Below, in pieces: positions 3,043 through 35,074 of a stretch of DNA of 37,653 nt. The DNA comes from a virus. Lineage: Duplodnaviria; Heunggongvirae; Uroviricota; Caudoviricetes. The notes beneath the pieces are model-generated. The model did not search any database. It was not told the origin of the DNA and saw only the letters and a program-made list of their open reading frames with translations. Both the position numbers and the translations under genes were made by a program. Numbering within the stretch: position 1 is the first letter of the stretch; each line of letters opens with the position of its first letter. Location of the stretch: IMG/VR virus record IMGVR_UViG_2778261231_000003, one strand, 5' to 3'.

Positions 3043-3954
3043 TTATATGTAATCAGGTAGTGAATTCAAAGCCATCACTCTTTCTCTTTCTTTTTCTGTC
3101 ATTTCTCTCATAACAATTTGAGATAGCGCTAATGTTATCTCCTTTGTTTTATTGAAGGCTTCTTTGGTATATGTTTTCCTTCCATACTCAAGTTCATTAA
3201 ATGTCCCCATAATCCATTTGAGATAGAATAATGGGATGGCTAGATCACTTATATCCTGCCATCTCGTAATCGCTTTATATTCATTCCAAAAATAATCCTC
3301 AAAATGCTTATCACAATCACCTTTACACGCATAATAAACCGCTATCACCTCATTTGGTTTGTCATCGTGTATGATCTCTGCATTGCACACAATGCCATCA
3401 TAATTTTCTTCATGATGGTTTTCTATTAAGTCCTTTCCACAACGATCACATTTTATAGGTAAGTACTTATCAAAAATCAAATGCTTGGGTTTTATTTTTT
3501 TATAGCTCTCAGGAAAGTATCTAAGGAGTAGTTTTGAGTAACCAATTCTGACTAAGTGATTTTCAATTAATTTACCATCAAAGAATCGAAAGTCCTTTAT
3601 TTTTCCATTCTCTTTTAATTGCGTCATTCTTGAATTTAAACCACTACTTGGCAGTGTTGAGTAAAATCCAATAAATCCGTCGGCATTGAATCCATCAATA
3701 CGTTCTTGTATATTAATCTCATCCTTTTCTGAAACTGATTTTTTACTTGTTGCATAATGTTTACAGCTAACAAGCCAACGAAATTTATATTTATTTAACT
3801 GACCTTGCAATTGCTCTGTGATTAAAAGATCTTTACCTCCATCTGCACCTCTATCTGGCGCGGATTCAATATAAAAGCCAAGTTCTTCAAGAAAATCACG
3901 GGCAAATGACTCCCAGGCTTCACCGTCACTATCAATTTCAGTAAAGTTAATCAT
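3043..3954 (-). CDS. Predicted Mrr-like (PD-(D/E)xK restriction-endonuclease fold) nuclease domain protein with Cys/His-rich C-terminal region
   Basis: N-terminus EAWESFARDFLEELGFYIESAPDRGADGGKDLLITEQ...FRWLVSCKHY fits the Mrr catalytic-domain pattern (acidic residue, D-x-G-x-D-L, Q/E-x-K). C-terminal part has CDRCGKDL...C...ACKGDCDKH. GGGAG Shine-Dalgarno 9 nt upstream of ATG 3954. Very AT-rich. Confidence 0.55.
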   Translation of the reverse strand: MINFTEIDSDGEAWESFARDFLEELGFYIESAPDRGADGGKDLLITEQLQGQLNKYKFRWLVSCKHYATSKKSVSEKDEINIQERIDGFNADGFIGFYSTLPSSGLNSRMTQLKENGKIKDFRFFDGKLIENHLVRIGYSKLLLRYFPESYKKIKPKHLIFDKYLPIKCDRCGKDLIENHHEENYDGIVCNAEIIHDDKPNEVIAVYYACKGDCDKHFEDYFWNEYKAITRWQDISDLAIPLFYLKWIMGTFNELEYGRKTYTKEAFNKTKEITLALSQIVMREMTEKERERVMALNSLPDYI

Positions 3955-4331: not shown

Positions 4332-5201
<870 letters not shown>

Positions 5202-5225
5202 GTCTTTAAGTGATAAGCATAAACC

Positions 5226-5263
5226 GCAGCACGATCTTCTTGCATACGACGTGCTACGGTTTC
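5226..5263 (+). repeat. Direct repeat copy 2, between the GIY-YIG stop and the invertase stop
   Basis: GCAGCACGATCTTCTTGCATACGACGTGCTACGGTTTC; internal inverted repeat AGCACG...CGTGCT. Overlaps the invertase stop codon (5262-5264) by 2 nt. Confidence 0.6.
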
Positions 5264-5816
5264 ATTTATCTCCGACCGGAAACTTCTTATACAGTGTCGA
5301 TATACCAACATCATAGATGATCGCCACCTTCTGGCGAGGAACGCCTGATGCAATTAATCGCCCGGCCTGCGCCCATTGTTCTGGTGTAAGTTTGGGACGA
5401 CGTCCCCCAATTCGTCCCTGTGCGCGAGCAGCTTCCAGTCCAGCTTTTGTTCGTTCAACAATCAGTTCTCGTTCCATTTCAGCCAGGGCACCCATCACAT
5501 GAAAGAAAAAACGCCCCATCGGTGTGCTGGTATCAATAGCATCCGTCAGGCTGCGAAAATTAACGCCACGTTCGCGCAACTCCTCAACCAGAATGACCAG
5601 ATGCCGCATACTACGCCCCAGCCGATCCAGCTTCCAGACAACCAGAGTGTCACCTGCCGATAATGTCCTGAGCAGTTTTTTCAGTCCCGGCCTTTCGGAC
5701 TTTGTACCGCTTATCTTGTCTTCAAAAATCAGCTCGCATCCTGCACAGTTCAGCGCATTACGTTGTAGATCTGTGTTCTGGTCATTTGTTGACACACGTA
5801 CATAGCCAATAAGCAT
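5262..5816 (-). CDS. Serine recombinase, DNA invertase of the Pin/Gin/Hin/Cin family
   Basis: N-terminus MLIGYVRVSTNDQNTDLQRNAL matches Pin/Gin invertases (from memory) and includes the catalytic serine; C-terminal HTH GVPRQKVAIIYDVGISTLYKK. GGGAGA Shine-Dalgarno upstream. Confidence 0.85.
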   Translation of the reverse strand: MLIGYVRVSTNDQNTDLQRNALNCAGCELIFEDKISGTKSERPGLKKLLRTLSAGDTLVVWKLDRLGRSMRHLVILVEELRERGVNFRSLTDAIDTSTPMGRFFFHVMGALAEMERELIVERTKAGLEAARAQGRIGGRRPKLTPEQWAQAGRLIASGVPRQKVAIIYDVGISTLYKKFPVGDK

Positions 5817-5912
5817 GGTAGATCTCCCTGACTGATTAGACTTGAGATAAATGACAGGGGATAAGTGAGATAATTATGGGAAGTACTGGGTCAACATGGG
5901 AAGAGACTGGAT

Positions 5913-10611: not shown

Positions 10612-12381
10612 TCAGTTACCGTTAACGATGCTGATAACGCTGTTGCGGGCCGGAGTGGTCAGGGTAACCATCACCTCATCCAGCGCGGCTTCAGGTACGC
10701 CATCCGGGTACTGCGCCGTTAACTGGCGGTAATGTTCCGGCGTCCAGATATGGCCGTTAGCGCCAAACTTCTCGCGCAGGGCTTTCGCCGCCTCCACATG
10801 GGTCAGCGGACGCTGCTCAATACGCGGCCCGCGCACGTCTGAAGCCTGACCGCGCTTCGGCATATAGGCCGGAAGCGTGGTGTCGTCGATATGTTTGTAC
10901 GGGTCAAGTCGCCCGCCGAACGGCAGCGCCTTCGCCTTGCGTGCAGCAGCTGCATCGGTGGCGTTATCGGTGCCCGTAACCAGCTCTTCGATTTCTTTTG
11001 CCGCCGTCTGCGCCGGGGTCTCCGGCAGGGCTTTGTAGTTTTCGCCAAATACCGCCGCGTTTTCGGCAAAGCCGAACTCGTTCTTTCTGACCTCCTCGAC
11101 CAGGAAGAACGTCTCGTGACCGTCCTCACCGGTCAGCACCACCTGCGCCACATCGCTGCGCCACGGGTTACGGGTAATCATCAGTTTTTCGCCGACCAGT
11201 ACGCCCGGTACCGTCGAAACGTCAAACTCATTGCCCCGGAACGAGACGCGCAGTTTTGGTGTGACCTTACGGAGTTCCGGTGCGGCCACCGCCAGTTCGC
11301 GGCAAACCTCAACGGATGGCGCTTTTTTCAGCTGGTCAGCAGTAATCTTCAGCCAGATATCCGTGCGGGTTTTACCGTGGCGGCTGTGGACCGCCGTGGC
11401 GTTAAAGTGGCTGCGCCATTTCACCGCCAGTGCGTTCAGTTCGTCCAGGCTATGAACCGGCTGGAATTTGAGACCCGGCTCCAGTTTACGTTCGATAATG
11501 TCACGGGCCTTTTCCACCTGCCCGGTGGCGCGGGCGTTATGCGGCTTGTGCGCTATCAGATTGATGCCCAGCGAGCGGCACATGTTTTTCGTCATGCCAG
11601 CGGTGTTCGCCGAACCGGGATCAAGGTAGAGTATTTTCGGCACGCCGTGCAGCACGTCCGCGCCGCCGCGCTCCTGCATGGCGTTGATAAGCACAGAACA
11701 GAGGTTCTCACCAGATTCCGCACCCATCACGTACTCAACGTAAATCCAGCCGCTGGTATGGTCGGTAATCTCGTAACTCCACACGCGGTCACTGGCGATG
11801 CGGGCGATGTTGGCAGGCTTGTTCTTGTAGAACTTCGAGCTGTCCATCACCTGCAACCCTTTATGGCCGTTGCTCAGGTAGTAAAGCGTACAAAGTGAGG
11901 CATCAATCTCCCAGACGTGATTGGGATGCAGGCTGGCCATCTCGGACGACGGGGCCGGTGCGTCAAGCTGTTCCGGGTGCAGACCATAGTTCCGCAGGGC
12001 GCGGCTGATGGTGTCCTCGGACAGCGGGAAAAACTCGCCTGTGGCCTCGTCCGTTCTGCCAGCAGTGATAAAGCCGTTTGACCGCAGGGTCTCCACCGCA
12101 TCCGCGATGGAATACAGGCGCTTACCGTTCTTACGGGTGGCCTCGCGCAGCGTGGCAGATATCAGCGCGGCTTCGTCGCGGCTCAGGGCACTGCGCCCGG
12201 CATCGGCGCGTTTTTTACGTTTGTCAGTCACTGATACCTCCTTCAGCTTGCGCAGCAGGGTGGCGCGGGAAATGCCCAGTTCGGCGCAGGCGGCATCATA
12301 TATCGCACCACGCTTACCATGCCCCGCGTCACGTGCCGCGCGGGCAACATAAACCAGTCGTTCAGTCAGGGCGGCACTCAT
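10612..12381 (-). CDS. DDE transposase (phage transposase A; rve/integrase-core type)
   Basis: 589 aa, N-terminal HTH, central integrase-core-like region (HPNHVWEIDAS...); AGGAGG Shine-Dalgarno; upstream of the B-like ATPase as in transposable phages. Confidence 0.8.
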   Translation of the reverse strand: MSAALTERLVYVARAARDAGHGKRGAIYDAACAELGISRATLLRKLKEVSVTDKRKKRADAGRSALSRDEAALISATLREATRKNGKRLYSIADAVETLRSNGFITAGRTDEATGEFFPLSEDTISRALRNYGLHPEQLDAPAPSSEMASLHPNHVWEIDASLCTLYYLSNGHKGLQVMDSSKFYKNKPANIARIASDRVWSYEITDHTSGWIYVEYVMGAESGENLCSVLINAMQERGGADVLHGVPKILYLDPGSANTAGMTKNMCRSLGINLIAHKPHNARATGQVEKARDIIERKLEPGLKFQPVHSLDELNALAVKWRSHFNATAVHSRHGKTRTDIWLKITADQLKKAPSVEVCRELAVAAPELRKVTPKLRVSFRGNEFDVSTVPGVLVGEKLMITRNPWRSDVAQVVLTGEDGHETFFLVEEVRKNEFGFAENAAVFGENYKALPETPAQTAAKEIEELVTGTDNATDAAAARKAKALPFGGRLDPYKHIDDTTLPAYMPKRGQASDVRGPRIEQRPLTHVEAAKALREKFGANGHIWTPEHYRQLTAQYPDGVPEAALDEVMVTLTTPARNSVISIVNGN

Positions 12382-13302: not shown

Positions 13303-13608
13303 TTAGCGACTACCAGCCATAACACGCTGGTTGATTTCATTAATACGATCCTGCGCCCGCGCCATTTCGGTACTGTGCGCCATGGCGATTTGTAAGAGCT
13401 GGACTCCAGGGGCAAAACGCCCGTTATCCAGTTTCAGGGCCAGTCCTTCTTCGATAAGGGTATTGAGCGCCCGATTGATATTCGCCGGGGACTCGCCCAG
13501 AGCTGACGCCAGCTCGCCGTTAGAAACACCGTTCAGAGCGTGACCGCGTAAAGCCTTAAGGACACGCAAAATACGGGTACCTGAGCTTGATGTATTTGGT
13601 TTACTCAT
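13303..13608 (-). CDS. Small winged-helix DNA-binding protein (IclR-type N-terminal HTH)
   Basis: TRILRVLKAL...GVSNGELASALGESPANINRALNTLIEEGL; AAGGAGG Shine-Dalgarno; start overlaps the Ner-like stop (ATGA). Confidence 0.55.
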   Translation of the reverse strand: MSKPNTSSSGTRILRVLKALRGHALNGVSNGELASALGESPANINRALNTLIEEGLALKLDNGRFAPGVQLLQIAMAHSTEMARAQDRINEINQRVMAGSR

Positions 13609-13835
13609 GACGCCTCCTTGAGGATGCCGGGGGTAACTTCTTTGCCTATTGCGACCGAAAGGTCTCGCAAAATCCGATAAGTCAAACGACCGCGTGGAAG
13701 TTCGCTTTTGCCTGCCCAGCGGCTGACAGCCTGGGTGACTGTTCGTGGCTCATAGCCCGCGTTAAGCGCGAACTGGCGCAAGCTACTGCCTCTTTCAACC
13801 AGCCGTGCCCGAACTTGTTGTTTGTTCATATGCAC
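13605..13835 (-). CDS. Ner-like DNA-binding protein
   Basis: ~75-aa protein with SLRQFALNAGYEPRTVTQAVSR HTH, divergent from the repressor. True start may be ATG 13829 rather than GTG 13835. Confidence 0.7.
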   Translation of the reverse strand: MHMNKQQVRARLVERGSSLRQFALNAGYEPRTVTQAVSRWAGKSELPRGRLTYRILRDLSVAIGKEVTPGILKEAS

Positions 13836-13917
13836 CGTGTTCCTGTTGGGTTATGATGTACTCTATTGGGTCTATTGTACGCACCCGAACGGGTATGTCA
13901 AATTGAGATATGTTCAA

Positions 13918-14328
13918 ATGAGTATAAAAGAGAGATTGCGCGAAGCGATGGATGCTAAGAGTCTGACAATTAAGGCATTGTCAGACTTGTCAAAAATTCC
14001 ATATCGCTCACTTCAAAACTATCTGCGTGGAGAGAGAGAACCTAATGCAGAGGCTCTTGTTGCGCTAAGCACCCATTTGAACATATCAATAGATTGGCTA
14101 CTTACTGGTAAAGGGGAAGCTGTTGGGGTAGAGAAAGCACAGCCAGCTAATCAGGAGCAGCATTTCAACCAGTCTGATCTGAAGTTATTGGAGCTGCTCA
14201 ACCAACTGGAGCCAGAGGTGCGAAAAGAGTTGCTGCGAGGCGCTGAGGAAAAACAGCGAATGATTGATATGGAAAAACAGCTTAAGGAGCTGTCCGCAGC
14301 GTTCGAAAGATTAAAAAATACGGGTTAA
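13918..14328 (+). CDS. XRE-family HTH repressor (phage c-type repressor candidate)
   Basis: LTIKALSDLSKIPYRSLQNYLRGEREPNAEALVALSTHLNISIDWLLTG is a Cro/cI-type HTH. No S24 peptidase domain. The 5' part of ORF-track 13822 lies in the operator region, so ATG 13918 is used. Confidence 0.7.
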   Translation: MSIKERLREAMDAKSLTIKALSDLSKIPYRSLQNYLRGEREPNAEALVALSTHLNISIDWLLTGKGEAVGVEKAQPANQEQHFNQSDLKLLELLNQLEPEVRKELLRGAEEKQRMIDMEKQLKELSAAFERLKNTG

Positions 14329-14363
14329 TCTGTTCCTATTAAGAACATTAGAGGTATAAGGAC

Positions 14364-14897
14364 ATGACTATGCGCAAATTATTTTTACCGTTGATATTTG
14401 TTTTATCTGGGTGTGGAGATAATACCGATCCTGCTGATACGTCCACCACAGCTAAGGAGCACGCGGTTTTTAGCGTTGAAACAGATAATCCGGTTGTAAA
14501 TCGCGAATTACCGTTTATTCGCCAACAACTCCCCGGCCTGGATAAGTACGCGGACAGTTTTGAAAAAGTCGAAGTATCCGAGGATAGCGAACGTCCGGTG
14601 ACAACGGTGCAGTTTCATATTAAAGACGAAAATAATATTCCAAGTGACTACATAGCCTCTGGTCATAATTGTTATTTGTTCATATCAAATAATGCCCACG
14701 AAGTGAAAATATCTAAATCAGCATGTCAGGCTGTTTTTTTCGATAAAACGGATGTTCCTGGTGGAGACCTGACCGTGAAACTTGATAAGGAAAAAGTTCC
14801 TATGACAGATGATGGTAAGACCCCGCGAGCAGGTTGTTTGAAAGCTTATTCACCAGAGCCAGATAATGATTATTGGACTTGTCCAAGGCAGGATTAA
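14364..14897 (+). CDS. Lipoprotein (possible moron / superinfection-exclusion candidate)
   Basis: Signal peptide with lipobox LSGC (MTMRKLFLPLIFVLSGCG); AAGGA Shine-Dalgarno; lower GC than surrounding phage genes (by eye). Confidence 0.65.
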   Translation: MTMRKLFLPLIFVLSGCGDNTDPADTSTTAKEHAVFSVETDNPVVNRELPFIRQQLPGLDKYADSFEKVEVSEDSERPVTTVQFHIKDENNIPSDYIASGHNCYLFISNNAHEVKISKSACQAVFFDKTDVPGGDLTVKLDKEKVPMTDDGKTPRAGCLKAYSPEPDNDYWTCPRQD

Positions 14898-14944
14898 ATG
14901 TTTAGGTGGTGCTGCAGATGCACCACCACCTTTAACTACCTCTT

Positions 14945-15715
14945 TCAAAAATTACAAATTACCAGCTCTTTCTTCGGGCTGGGTTTGCCTGTTACCTTAA
15001 GGTTGTAGCTGATATCAACCGACTGCATGTTCAGACCGTTGAATACCTGCCGCATTTCCGGGATATCGTTCACTGATATAATCATCTTCCCTTTGATCCT
15101 TCGCGCTAAATCTGCCATGTGATCATAGTTTTCCAGCCCGAACTCCACACCATAGCCTTCCGTTCCCCAGTACGGTGGGTCACAGTAGAACAGCGTATGC
15201 GGGCGATCATATCGCTCTATGCACTGGTGCCAGTCCAGATGCTCTATCAGCGTTCTCGACAGGCGCAGGTGTGCCATCGACAGTTCTTCCTCAATACGCA
15301 GCAAATTGAAGCGCGGCGCACTGGTTGTAGAGGTACCGAATGTGTGATCGGCGACCTTGCCGCCAAATGCCTGTTTCTGCAGGTAGTAGAACCGGGCCGC
15401 CCGCTGAATGTCGGTGAGCGTTTCTTCCGGCGTATCCTGCAACCATTTGTAAATCTGACGGCTGACCAGCGCCCATTTGAACTGGCGAATAAATTCTTCC
15501 AGATGATGCTTGACCACCCGATAGAGGTTCACCAGTTCCCCGTTGATATCGTTAATGACTTCGGTCTTGCTGGGAGTCTTTAGGAAATAGAGCGCAGCTG
15601 CCCCGCAGAACGGCTCCACATAGCAGGTATGGGCCGGAAACAATGGTAAAATATGCTTCGCCAGACGACGTTTACCGCCAATCCATGGGACGATGGGTAA
15701 AGATTGTTCTTTCAT
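14945..15715 (-). CDS. Dam-like N6-adenine DNA methyltransferase (D12 class)
   Basis: EPFCGAAALYF (AdoMet motif) and FYCDPPY catalytic motif. ATG 15715 preferred over TTG 15739. Confidence 0.8.
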   Translation of the reverse strand: MKEQSLPIVPWIGGKRRLAKHILPLFPAHTCYVEPFCGAAALYFLKTPSKTEVINDINGELVNLYRVVKHHLEEFIRQFKWALVSRQIYKWLQDTPEETLTDIQRAARFYYLQKQAFGGKVADHTFGTSTTSAPRFNLLRIEEELSMAHLRLSRTLIEHLDWHQCIERYDRPHTLFYCDPPYWGTEGYGVEFGLENYDHMADLARRIKGKMIISVNDIPEMRQVFNGLNMQSVDISYNLKVTGKPSPKKELVICNF

Positions 15716-15762
15716 TATCCGTAAGCCTTTTGCAATCAATGAAAATATGGCAGGCTAGTCTG

Positions 15763-15774
15763 GTCTCGCGAGAC
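15763..15774. promoter_or_regulatory. 12-bp perfect palindrome in the divergent methyltransferase-holin intergenic region
   Basis: GTCTCGCGAGAC, ~190 bp upstream of the holin start. Confidence 0.3.
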
Positions 15775-15962
15775 TGACTGAACCCTGGTCGGCTCACAGT
15801 GCATACCTGTGGGTTGATGACCAGCCTGGTGTTACCGCACCGGGCTGGTCGTTCTTTCAAAGCCATCATGCGGTTCACGTCTGCATCCTCACTATTAACG
15901 CTGTTTAAAATCCCTTTCCCCGACCATTTGTGATGCTGTCTCCACTACACAAGGAGACGCTC

Positions 15963-16313
15963 ATGAAAAACCTGAAAAAATTCATTCCCCCTGTTAAAAA
16001 GCCACGTCTCAGCGGCTGGCTGCTGACCGCTGTGCTGCTGCTCGGCACCATCGGTCTGGTATCGCCCCAGCAGCTGCCGGTGGTTGTCTACAAGCTATCA
16101 CTCATCACGCTGGCGGCAGTATTGGGCTACTGGCTTGACCGTTCGCTTTTCCCCAAAGCCCGTCCCGGTCAGTACCTGAAGCATGATGACAGGCTGATGG
16201 CTGATGGTCGCTTCCCTGTCCAGACTGGCCTTCACCTGGTCTTTTCTGCTGCGCTAATCCGCCGTGCGCTGATTGTTGCTGCAGTCTGTCTGGCCGTAGC
16301 GATGGGGCTTTAA
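15963..16313 (+). CDS. Holin-like membrane protein
   Basis: AAGGAG Shine-Dalgarno before ATG 15963; hydrophobic TM segments; stop overlaps the endolysin start (TAATG). Confidence 0.6.
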   Translation: MKNLKKFIPPVKKPRLSGWLLTAVLLLGTIGLVSPQQLPVVVYKLSLITLAAVLGYWLDRSLFPKARPGQYLKHDDRLMADGRFPVQTGLHLVFSAALIRRALIVAAVCLAVAMGL

Positions 16314-17050
16314 TGATGACCCTCTATATGTACTGGCCTCAGGTTGTCTGGGCCGTGCTGGTACTGCTGGGGCTGGGCATCGAACTGGCCCGCTACGGGC
16401 AGGCCCGAACGGGTAAGCACAGTTTCTGGTGGCAGCTCTTTGGTTCAGTAACGGTAGCCTGGCTGCTCTGGTGTGGCGGCTTCTTCAGTCAGGCCCGCGC
16501 TGCCCAGCCACCGCAGACCGCGCTGCAGTATCGCGACGATGTGATCCGTAATGCCCGGCTTGAATGGGGAATGTCTGCGCCGGTGGCCGACTTCGCCGCG
16601 CAGCTGCATCAGGAAAGCGGCTGGCGACCTGATGCGGTCTCGCCGGTTGGCGCTCAGGGACTGGCGCAGTTTATGCCCACCACCGCTGACTGGATAAGTC
16701 AGCTGATGCCGGGGCTTAACAGCCGTGAACCGTTTAATCCGTCTTGGGCCATCCGGGCGCTGGTCAGCTATGACCGCTGGCTGTGGCAACGCGTCAGCGC
16801 CGTCAATGACTGCGAGCGTATGGCCATGACGCTGTCAGGCTATAACGGTGGTCTGGGCTGGGTACAGCGGGACAAACGGCTGGCCTCGCAGCAGGGGCTG
16901 GACAGCACCCGCTGGTTTGGTCATGTCGCCACGGTGAATGCCGGACGCAGCACTGCCAACTGGCGGGAGAACCGTCATTATCCGCAGCGCATCCTGCACG
17001 AACTGGCCCCGCGTTATCTCACCTGGGGAGGCGGCAGCTGTGTGGACTAA
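16313..17050 (+). CDS. Endolysin: SLT-domain lytic transglycosylase with N-terminal hydrophobic anchor
   Basis: ESGWRPDAVSPVGAQGLAQFMP matches the SLT catalytic motif; N-terminal hydrophobic stretch WAVLVLLGLGI. Confidence 0.8.
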   Translation: MMTLYMYWPQVVWAVLVLLGLGIELARYGQARTGKHSFWWQLFGSVTVAWLLWCGGFFSQARAAQPPQTALQYRDDVIRNARLEWGMSAPVADFAAQLHQESGWRPDAVSPVGAQGLAQFMPTTADWISQLMPGLNSREPFNPSWAIRALVSYDRWLWQRVSAVNDCERMAMTLSGYNGGLGWVQRDKRLASQQGLDSTRWFGHVATVNAGRSTANWRENRHYPQRILHELAPRYLTWGGGSCVD

Positions 17051-29187: not shown

Positions 29188-29211
29188 AGGGGCTTCGGCC
29201 CCTTTCTTCTT
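29188..29211 (+). terminator. Rho-independent terminator
   Basis: AGGGGC-TTCG-GCCCCT (6-bp GC-rich stem, TTCG tetraloop) followed by TTCTTCTT. Confidence 0.65.
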
Positions 29212-29279
29212 AATCCCCTTTAATATCCGTCACGTCCACCTCCAGACATACTGCTCTGAACTTACACAGGAGCACGATC

Positions 29280-35020: not shown

Positions 35021-35074
35021 CCTTCTTAAACGCCTTTAATATCGGCGTTCCCGCACAGGGGCAATACTGCCCCC

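Follow-up and report, generated by a model that had tools for sequence, protein, structure and literature searches.

We analyzed a 37,653-nucleotide stretch of tailed-phage DNA (IMG/VR record IMGVR_UViG_2778261231_000003; the whole of it is hereafter called the window), with emphasis on the segment between a prophage repressor gene and the lysis genes. In this segment, a gene for a Dam-family DNA methyltransferase (dam) is read leftward, and directly upstream of it, on the opposite strand, we found a conserved structured RNA element. From comparison across loci, we conclude that the RNA structure is real, that it is specific to the + strand, and that it is tied to dam in phages of Beta- and Gammaproteobacteria. 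This dam-linked element appears to be undescribed. An earlier reading made from these letters (the original prediction) had pointed to a 12-bp palindrome in the gap between dam and the holin gene and assigned it to a divergent promoter region. The palindrome, GTCTCGCGAGAC at 15763-15774, is indeed present, but it is the 5′ hairpin of the conserved + strand RNA rather than an operator of the dam and holin promoters. The element, its parts, and the gene that it accompanies are as follows.

15750..15858, + strand: conserved structured RNA element, described by covariance model R1; predicted transcript ~15763-15858 (~96 nt)
15763-15774, + strand: RNA hairpin H1, equal to the 12-bp palindrome, with a lower stem to 15757/15779
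15780-15783 paired with 15851-15854, + strand: RNA closing helix, which encloses H2 and H3
15788-15818, + strand: RNA hairpin H2, with a CUCACAG-N7-CUGUG core
15819-15850, + strand: RNA hairpin H3, terminator-like, followed by a U-rich tail
14945..15715, - strand: D12-class (Dam-family) N6-adenine DNA methyltransferase, 256 aa, with PF02086 and TIGR00571 matches and a DPPY motif

Perfect 12-bp palindromes occur at chance frequency in this DNA (six in the window, compared with an average of 9.8 in shuffles), and thus only comparative data can lend significance to this one. No second copy was found in the window even when up to two mismatches were allowed, and the H2 core motif occurs once only. 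Comparison of the dam-holin gap with relatives by blastn divided it into three modules: a left block that ends at 15859, a junction, and a right block before holin. The left block, which is 84-99% conserved in E. coli relatives, folds on its + strand into three hairpins (z -5.1), better than on its - strand, and a single-sequence fold of 15762-15862 reproduced the consensus structure (z -4.96). When the region upstream of dam was aligned for 36 Enterobacterales loci, covariation was obvious. In a MAFFT alignment of 33 distinct sequences, 93.3% of cells were paired compared to 33-49% when the partners were slid, and 18 pairs carried compensatory changes; the observed values were reached by 0 of 500 shuffles. 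Extending the comparison to 63 distinct sequences, in an alignment that favors the structure because it was fitted to the model, gave compensatory changes in 35 of 38 pairs, 91.8% of cells paired, and a covariation score of 0.572 (0.05-0.14 for slid controls). The closing helix covaries as well, appearing as GAAC/GTTC, GAGC/GCTC, GCGC/GCGC, or GGTGC/GCACC.

We assigned the RNA to the + strand because its G-U pairs fit that strand. Read on the + strand, 95.9% of the H2 cells are paired, compared with 70.3% on the other strand. In 29 of the 33 sequences, one H2 position pairs G with U, which the - strand would turn into an A-C mismatch, and the H1 palindromes of relatives contain G-T mismatches that are tolerated only by a + strand RNA. 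Conservation extends beyond the pairing: the sequence of the H2 stem is near-invariant, and the GCCUUGG junction and the loop of H3 (GGUGUU...GCAC) are kept as well. The loop of H2 varies and does not resemble an anticodon. A search of Rfam 15 returned no match at gathering score in the whole window and none at E ≤ 10 in 15650-16000.

The linkage to dam was measured with the covariance model, which was built from Enterobacterales only and then searched in independent sequences. Of 82 genomic sources, Betaproteobacterial loci included, 68 had a full-length match immediately upstream of dam and opposite to it in strand, as did 78 of 80 IMG/VR viral contigs. Matches placed in the same way relative to dam were obtained in Vibrio phage VP882 (E 1e-15) and Acinetobacter phage AM106 (E 4e-7). 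The model gave no match in BcepMu, which lacks dam, in the com-mom region of Mu, or in a Halomonas phage. VP882 is described as encoding a trans-acting small RNA of ~50 nt, VpdS, which may or may not be identical with the element found here. Two loci look like disrupted cassettes: in Pantoea stewartii (locus positions 3462-3500), the match upstream of dam covers just the 39 nt next to the gene and the RNA element is absent, and in Apirhabdus, the element (1333-1441) lies ~2 kb from a dam gene (3501) that matches only from residue 24.

Between the RNA element and the dam start codon lie ~34 nt, which hold a ribosome-binding sequence and a TATTTT hexamer for dam. The features of this shared region are listed below; its promoters are putative.

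15716..15762, no strand: back-to-back control region, with invariant columns in the alignment
15721-15731, - strand: dam ribosome-binding sequence, the complement of the invariant GTAAGCCTTTT, in invariant alignment columns
15742-15747, - strand: -10-like TATTTT of the putative dam promoter
15729-15734 and 15751-15756, + strand: -35-like TTTGCA and -10-like CAGGCT of the putative RNA promoter

Of 60 distinct loci, 58 retain A2 and T6 of the + strand hexamer, which is followed 6-7 nt later by the hairpin. The hexamer reads TAGGCT in 30 distinct loci, CAGGCT in 10, and TAGCCT in 9, with others such as TAGAAT; in Enterobacterales, TTTnCA stands 16 nt upstream of it. At the other end of the element, U-rich tracts follow the closing helix on the + strand only. 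The hexamer and the U-rich tail fit a promoter, a start at ~15763, a terminator, and an RNA of ~96 nt, as far as these can be read from conserved sequence. We also considered that TAGGCT and TAGCCT contain an AGSCT methylation site. We rejected this, since TAGAAT, TAAACT, CATACT, and other variants share A2 and T6 alone with these hexamers, which favors a -10 element.

The gene that the RNA accompanies had been called a Dam-class methyltransferase on the opposite strand, which holds at the level of the D12/Dam family and fails for Dam proper. Residues 12-233 match PF02086 (E 1.1e-27, 97.8 bits compared to a gathering score of 22), catalytic motif IV is present as DPPYW, and the Dam subfamily model TIGR00571 is narrowly exceeded (117.2 bits compared to a cutoff of 114.85). 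The enzyme thus shares fold family and DPPY motif with E. coli Dam, T4 Dam, and DpnM, and its alignment to them is nearly full-length. In contrast to GATC-specific E. coli Dam, it scores far below the cutoff of the Dam equivalog model NF008152 (69.8 compared to 441 bits), and in a phmmer alignment, K9, R124, L122, and P134 of E. coli Dam fall on P11, A123, K121, and S133. We take these four Dam residues to be the GATC base contacts seen in Dam-DNA structures, K9 and R124 presumably reading the G:C pair. Because K9 and R124 are replaced by Pro and Ala, GATC specificity should not be assumed, and annotation of this enzyme as the GATC Dam of methyl-directed repair is inappropriate. We found no usable methylome in the literature on strains that carry this prophage.

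The methyltransferase gene is very widespread, with versions of 67-98% identity in 459 species genomes and 460 viral contigs, and the window protein is 65% identical to Dam of Vibrio phage VP882 and 55% identical to its counterpart in Acinetobacter phage AM106. Judging from the aligned loci, the position of dam is conserved across enterobacterial relatives, where it is the best conserved local gene and no oddity of one prophage. In Betaproteobacteria, dam is still ~70-78% identical, and holin, transposase, and other neighbors are undetectable with the window proteins. Since dam is far better conserved than its neighbors (loci L007-L086), the cassette appears to move horizontally between phage types. 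The Betaproteobacterial genes follow tail-fiber genes and stand beside host genes at the prophage end, which is the position of mom, and in 15 loci, a Mu-type com open reading frame immediately precedes dam (PF10122, E 1.4e-15). The dam gene of the window has no com gene before it and sits between repressor and holin, away from the prophage end. We therefore regard the methylase as a putative mobile, Mom-like anti-restriction cassette by analogy, and the anti-restriction role that the original prediction had offered fits the com-dam operons that relatives carry at the mom position. M.EcoGII was dropped as a possible relative of the enzyme because it is a beta-class enzyme, and Hia5/Hin1523 were set aside because published work places them much farther from Dam.

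How might the RNA and dam work together? We tentatively favor, with somewhat less than even confidence, a reading in which the divergently transcribed small RNA gene acts as a lock on dam expression until lytic growth. On this reading, leftward dam and a rightward gene for a ~96-nt structured RNA would form a two-part, self-contained, horizontally mobile cassette. The RNA-gene promoter would stand back to back with that of dam, with H1 coming first in the transcript and H3 last as an intrinsic terminator. In the lysogen, the RNA promoter would occupy the shared 40-bp control region, and the two promoters would be mutually exclusive. In most other phages, the genes ahead of dam are read in its direction; where these are late genes, the RNA would in addition be fully complementary to the read-through leader of dam, giving the lock an antisense arm. 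Dam would be made only once lytic transcription overwhelms the lock, and the methylase would serve as a functional analogue of Mu Mom that modifies late-made phage DNA against restriction. To our knowledge, orphan adenine methylases are common in phages, and Mu mom is the single case in which silencing in the lysogen is understood in detail. A Dam-family cassette that occurs in >450 species genomes and >450 viral contigs and has its own conserved structured RNA gene would give a concrete, testable way into a mobile form of control, and its RNA would be an additional family, previously undescribed, in phage biology.

Two known systems suggest themselves for comparison. The first is com-mom of Mu: relatives of the window dam lie at the prophage end after tail-fiber genes, behind a gene for the zinc-ribbon protein Com, and the proposed logic is the same, in that a potentially harmful modification enzyme is held off until late. 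The mom promoter region is reportedly also a site of divergent, mutually exclusive RNA polymerase binding (momP1/momP2). Unlike that system, the window encodes a methyltransferase instead of the acyltransferase-fold enzyme Mom, it has no com, its dam lies between immunity and lysis genes, and no GATC/OxyR-type sites were seen. The second comparison is with P22 sar and lambda OOP, which are short, highly structured, terminator-ended RNAs made opposite a gene that is harmful if expressed at the wrong time. As judged from gene orientation, the RNA of most relatives would likewise be complementary to a read-through dam leader. However, there is no sequence or structural relationship to sar or OOP, the branched fold with a closing helix around two hairpins is unlike theirs, and in the window, no overlap of the RNA with a dam transcript is evident.

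Modules of com with an adenine methyltransferase have been described as replacing mom in FluMu (hin1523), Pnme1 (nma1821), and phage B3 (ORF47/48) (Drozdz et al. 2012, PMC3299994). These modules, together with Hia5, resemble the present case in that a DPPY adenine methyltransferase takes the place of mom in transposable phages, sometimes with com (PMC3299994). The Hia5 family, however, is only remotely Dam-like (~15% identity, third PSI-BLAST iteration; PMC3299994), whereas the window enzyme matches the Dam family model directly (E 1e-33); on the published description, the two are set apart. No associated structured RNA is described for the FluMu, Pnme1, Hia5, and B3 modules (PMC3299994).

Several points weigh against the proposed lock. 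The putative RNA start and dam promoter are placed by conservation only. In the window itself, the -10 sequence (CAGGCT) is weak, and a generic sigma-70 scan called no promoter at 15716-15860. Of the two alignments, only the 33-sequence MAFFT count is free of the bias toward the structure. An anti-restriction role would depend on which sequence the methylase modifies and is likewise putative. When duplex energies of the RNA with the dam and com translation starts were compared with those of shuffles, no complementarity was found (mean z +0.31), and direct repression of dam translation in trans is thus unsupported. No co-oriented gene precedes dam in the window, so that the antisense arm is inapplicable here and promoter competition remains. 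Finally, the strong conservation of the H2 stem sequence suggests that a particular protein or RNA binds it, and the proposed mechanism names no such partner. A separate observation concerns the 3′ tail of the RNA, GUUCUUUC (15851-15858), which is a perfect complement of the opening codons of dam, AUG AAA GAA C (15706-15715); this match is probably a coincidence because it is not kept in relatives (for example, locus L020).

A simpler explanation, which we consider unlikely, is that the element is an insulator without a regulatory role of its own. The dam promoter region would then be active both ways, and the structured transcript with its terminator would serve to keep rightward transcription out of the cargo and lysis genes in the lysogen. 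H3 with its U-rich tail does resemble an intrinsic terminator, the element stands directly before a cargo slot and the holin promoter in the window, and the missing complementarity to the dam start would be expected. Nevertheless, one hairpin suffices for a terminator, yet H1, H2, and the closing helix are all kept by compensatory changes in Beta- and Gammaproteobacteria, and the sequence of the H2 stem is nearly invariant. Moreover, the element accompanies dam where no lysis genes lie downstream, as in VP882, AM106, and the prophage-end positions.

The conservation of the H2 stem, the GCCUUGG junction, and the H3 loop, all suggestive of a specific ligand, would instead suit an RNA that acts in trans and is unrelated to control of dam, either as a decoy or inhibitor of host defense or as a partner or substrate of the methylase in a two-part counter-defense cassette. 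Strict linkage to an anti-restriction-type gene and a neighboring slot that gathers variable cargo genes agree with this. We nonetheless think it distinctly improbable: the RNA has no similarity to described RNA families, no target was identified, the loop of H2 varies and is unlike an anticodon, and the support is purely circumstantial. More doubtful still is the idea, which we mention as speculation, that the dam-linked RNA represents a new phage RNA class that works with or for the methylase, as a gating or targeting ligand, or serves as a host-defense decoy. If this were true, dam and the RNA would be a two-component counter-defense cassette moving among BcepMu-like, VP882-like, and Acinetobacter phages.

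We give little credence to the possibility that the conserved structure belongs to the dam mRNA leader on the - strand and acts in cis, like the stem that inhibits mom translation or a riboswitch. The mom paradigm combines leader structure with Com. Most helices do form on the complementary strand too (70-85% of cells paired), and the complementarity between AAGCCT and AGGCTT could sequester the dam ribosome-binding site. However, the G-U pairs become A-C mismatches when the - strand is read, including the H2 pair that is G-U in 29 of 33 sequences; the U tract is found on the + strand only; and relatives carry unrelated cargo inserted directly at the far end of the element, so that an upstream dam promoter would find no conserved space there. 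Least probable is a role of the palindrome as a DNA operator, bound by a dimeric regulator that would govern the divergent dam and holin promoters: the palindrome is a perfect dyad over the -35 region of the putative dam promoter, but the dyad sequence varies freely (TCGCGA, ATCGAT, CTCGAG, GTCGAC, GTGCAC, and others) and is often imperfect through G-T where dam is 70-98% identical, palindromes of this length are expected by chance, the window offers no second site even at two mismatches, and the holin promoter is a separate, differently conserved module.

The locus that carries the cassette is the immunity/accessory region of a BcepMu-like (Bcepmuvirus-like) transposable prophage of E. coli. 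From 13600 to 16400, the window matches prophage DNA of several E. coli chromosomes with 100% identity, strains AW1.7 and Ecol_542 being among the carriers; identity is 99.9% with Escherichia phage Phi06_2974 B and 97.6% with Klebsiella phage KP12. We took the gene layout from the identical, RefSeq-annotated prophage of E. coli Ecol_542. Its leftward early operon encodes, in order, the Ner-position helix-turn-helix (HTH) protein, an IclR-type HTH protein, a DUF3102 protein, a DDE transposase, an ExeA-like ATPase, and Mor; its rightward block encodes the repressor, accessory genes, holin, an SLT endolysin, and Rz, followed by Mu-like head and P2-like tail genes. The rve transposase, ExeA-like ATPase, and Mor on the left and the holin/SLT/Rz genes, Mu-like head, and P2-like tail on the right are those of a Bcepmuvirus-like phage, and the relative PhiKM is classified in Bcepmuvirus. 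In Ecol_542, the Mor end of the prophage adjoins a truncated aldolase pseudogene (11436-12236 of that locus, approximately 5035-5835 of the window), a junction that is consistent with insertion into a host gene by transposition.

Every feature listed in the original prediction was found at or near its position, and the order that it had described, a divergent early/repressor switch followed by accessory genes, is supported. Its statement that the corresponding region of Mu holds no such genes, however, used the wrong phage for comparison, because the layout matches BcepMu and PhiKM is placed in Bcepmuvirus. BcepMu genes 16-21 and the window share a leftward early operon with rve transposase and ExeA-like ATPase, a divergent HTH pair, and accessory genes between repressor and holin, followed by holin, SLT endolysin, and Rz. 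They differ in that this slot carries gp18-gp20 in BcepMu, without dam, the RNA element, or a homologue of the window's lipoprotein, and in that the Ner-position and repressor proteins are barely similar. The repressor-to-holin gap is thus a variable accessory slot in the BcepMu-like group, and the switch, the repressor, and the lipoprotein moron are ordinary anatomy of temperate transposable phages. The remaining features of the segment are listed here.

13605..13829, - strand: Ner-position small HTH gene, the first early gene (open reading frame list and RefSeq CDS); alternative GTG start at 13835
13830..13917, between divergent genes: switch region with an early promoter-like site, two repeats, and the ACCCGAACGGGT dyad
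13918..14328, + strand: repressor of Cro/CI type (HTH_3), 136 aa (PF01381, E 5.8e-11)
14370..14897, + strand: orphan lipoprotein, 175 aa, lipobox LSGC with Cys15; alternative ATG at 14364
14900..14936, both strands: hairpin between the convergent lipoprotein and dam genes (fold z -3.9 on + and -4.0 on -)
15859..15892, no strand: cargo junction, defined by blastn breakpoints and empty in the window
15895..15911, + strand: late (lysis) promoter-like motif TTAACGCTGTTTAAAAT upstream of holin, whose Shine-Dalgarno sequence is at 15951-15956 and ATG at 15963
15963..16313, + strand: holin, the first gene of the lysis/late operon (PF13272, E 1.1e-41; phrog_1528)

The switch measures 82 bp (13836-13917), as the original prediction had it, if the GTG at 13835 is the start of the leftward gene, and 88 bp with the RefSeq ATG at 13829. 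The label Ner reflects position: the protein matches phrog_8503 (E 4.9e-35), its scores with PF13693 (17.6 bits compared to 25) and TIGR04111 (BcepMu gp16; 29.1 compared to 34) are both below cutoff, and BLASTP found no match to BcepMu gp16. The gene on the other side of the switch does encode a repressor as proposed, an HTH_3 protein with sub-threshold matches to RstR/DicA subfamilies and 35% identity to BcepMu gp17 in the HTH only.

Within the switch, the TTGGGT repeats TTGGGTTAT (13846-13854) and TTGGGTCTAT (13866-13875) are spaced 20 bp apart, the pattern occurring three times in the window (0.41 expected). A leftward early promoter-like site on the - strand (-35 TTGACA at 13901-13896, -10 TACAAT at 13879-13874, spacer 16, 11 of 12 matches) has its -10 overlapped by repeat copy 2, and the palindrome ACCCGAACGGGT occupies 13881-13892. 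From their sequence and placement, the repeats are operator candidates at the early promoter, as had been suggested. They sit at the expected position, and the repressor-proximal half of the switch is exchanged together with the repressor in heteroimmune relatives. In these relatives, the repressor is 64-67% identical and the Ner-position protein 95% identical; 13830-13864, including copy 1, is kept, and 13865-13917 is swapped along with the repressor. Because copy 2 and the ACCCGAACGGGT half travel with the repressor and copy 1 stays with the early gene, it is the former half that changes as an operator would. The mosaic breakpoint at 13864/13865 is seen in loci L009 and L014, whose swapped half has its own repeat set, ATGAATAA, and a dyad, GAATAAGT..ACTTATTC.

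The lipoprotein gene is a low-GC accessory gene that is likely co-transcribed with the repressor, to judge from the intergenic sequence. Both of its features noted earlier were borne out: the translated N terminus, MRKLFLPLIFVLSGC, is a signal peptide that ends in a bacterial lipobox ([LVI][ASTVI][GAS]C, here LSGC), and the GC content of the gene is 41.7% compared to 56.3% for the prophage part of the window. Across 21 homologues, the lipobox Cys is invariant and another four cysteines are conserved; the Gly at +2 predicts an outer-membrane location. A search of 5.8 billion proteins yielded just 35 homologues, and every one with a named source comes from Enterobacterales. Homologues with 36-97% identity occupy the same slot beside dam in prophages of Photorhabdus, Xenorhabdus, Brenneria, Mixta, and others, and some prophages lack one. 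Since the 41-nt gap between repressor and lipoprotein holds no hairpin or terminator and a hairpin that folds on both strands, and is therefore likely a bidirectional terminator, follows the gene at 14900-14936, co-transcription with the repressor in the lysogen is likely; the lipoprotein would then be a lysogenic-conversion gene. That it mediates superinfection exclusion, as the original prediction had proposed, is pure conjecture: the protein matched no Pfam, NCBIfam, or PADLOC family, its sole PHROG match has no known function, it has no recognizable fold relative, and it shows neither sequence nor fold similarity to characterized exclusion lipoproteins such as T5 Llp and phi80/N15 Cor.

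To the right of the RNA element, the motif TTAA-N5-TTTAAWAT has three exact + strand matches in the window (0.15 expected), all in late intergenic regions: at 15895-15911, before holin, and at 29210-29226 and 35026-35042, before two later late-gene blocks. From their sequence and positions, these sites are probably Mor-dependent late promoters, and the lysis promoter is, on the same reading, a separate module that is not linked to the palindrome. A cargo hotspot in which relatives differ begins immediately past the RNA terminator (L002 5260-6228, L003 3808-4628, L004 3752-4870, and L006 4857-6285); relatives carry there a protein with DUF2441, one of 182 aa whose PADLOC match to '2TM effector' is weak (E 7.5e-5), or two genes on the dam strand. 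Viral contig L146 carries two full copies of the RNA element (723-831 and 1358-1466), ~630 nt apart, and loci L009 (2338-2396) and L013 (1368-1426) have a second H3-like hairpin past the cargo. These duplicate elements and hairpins suggest that cargo may be exchanged by recombination at the hairpins.

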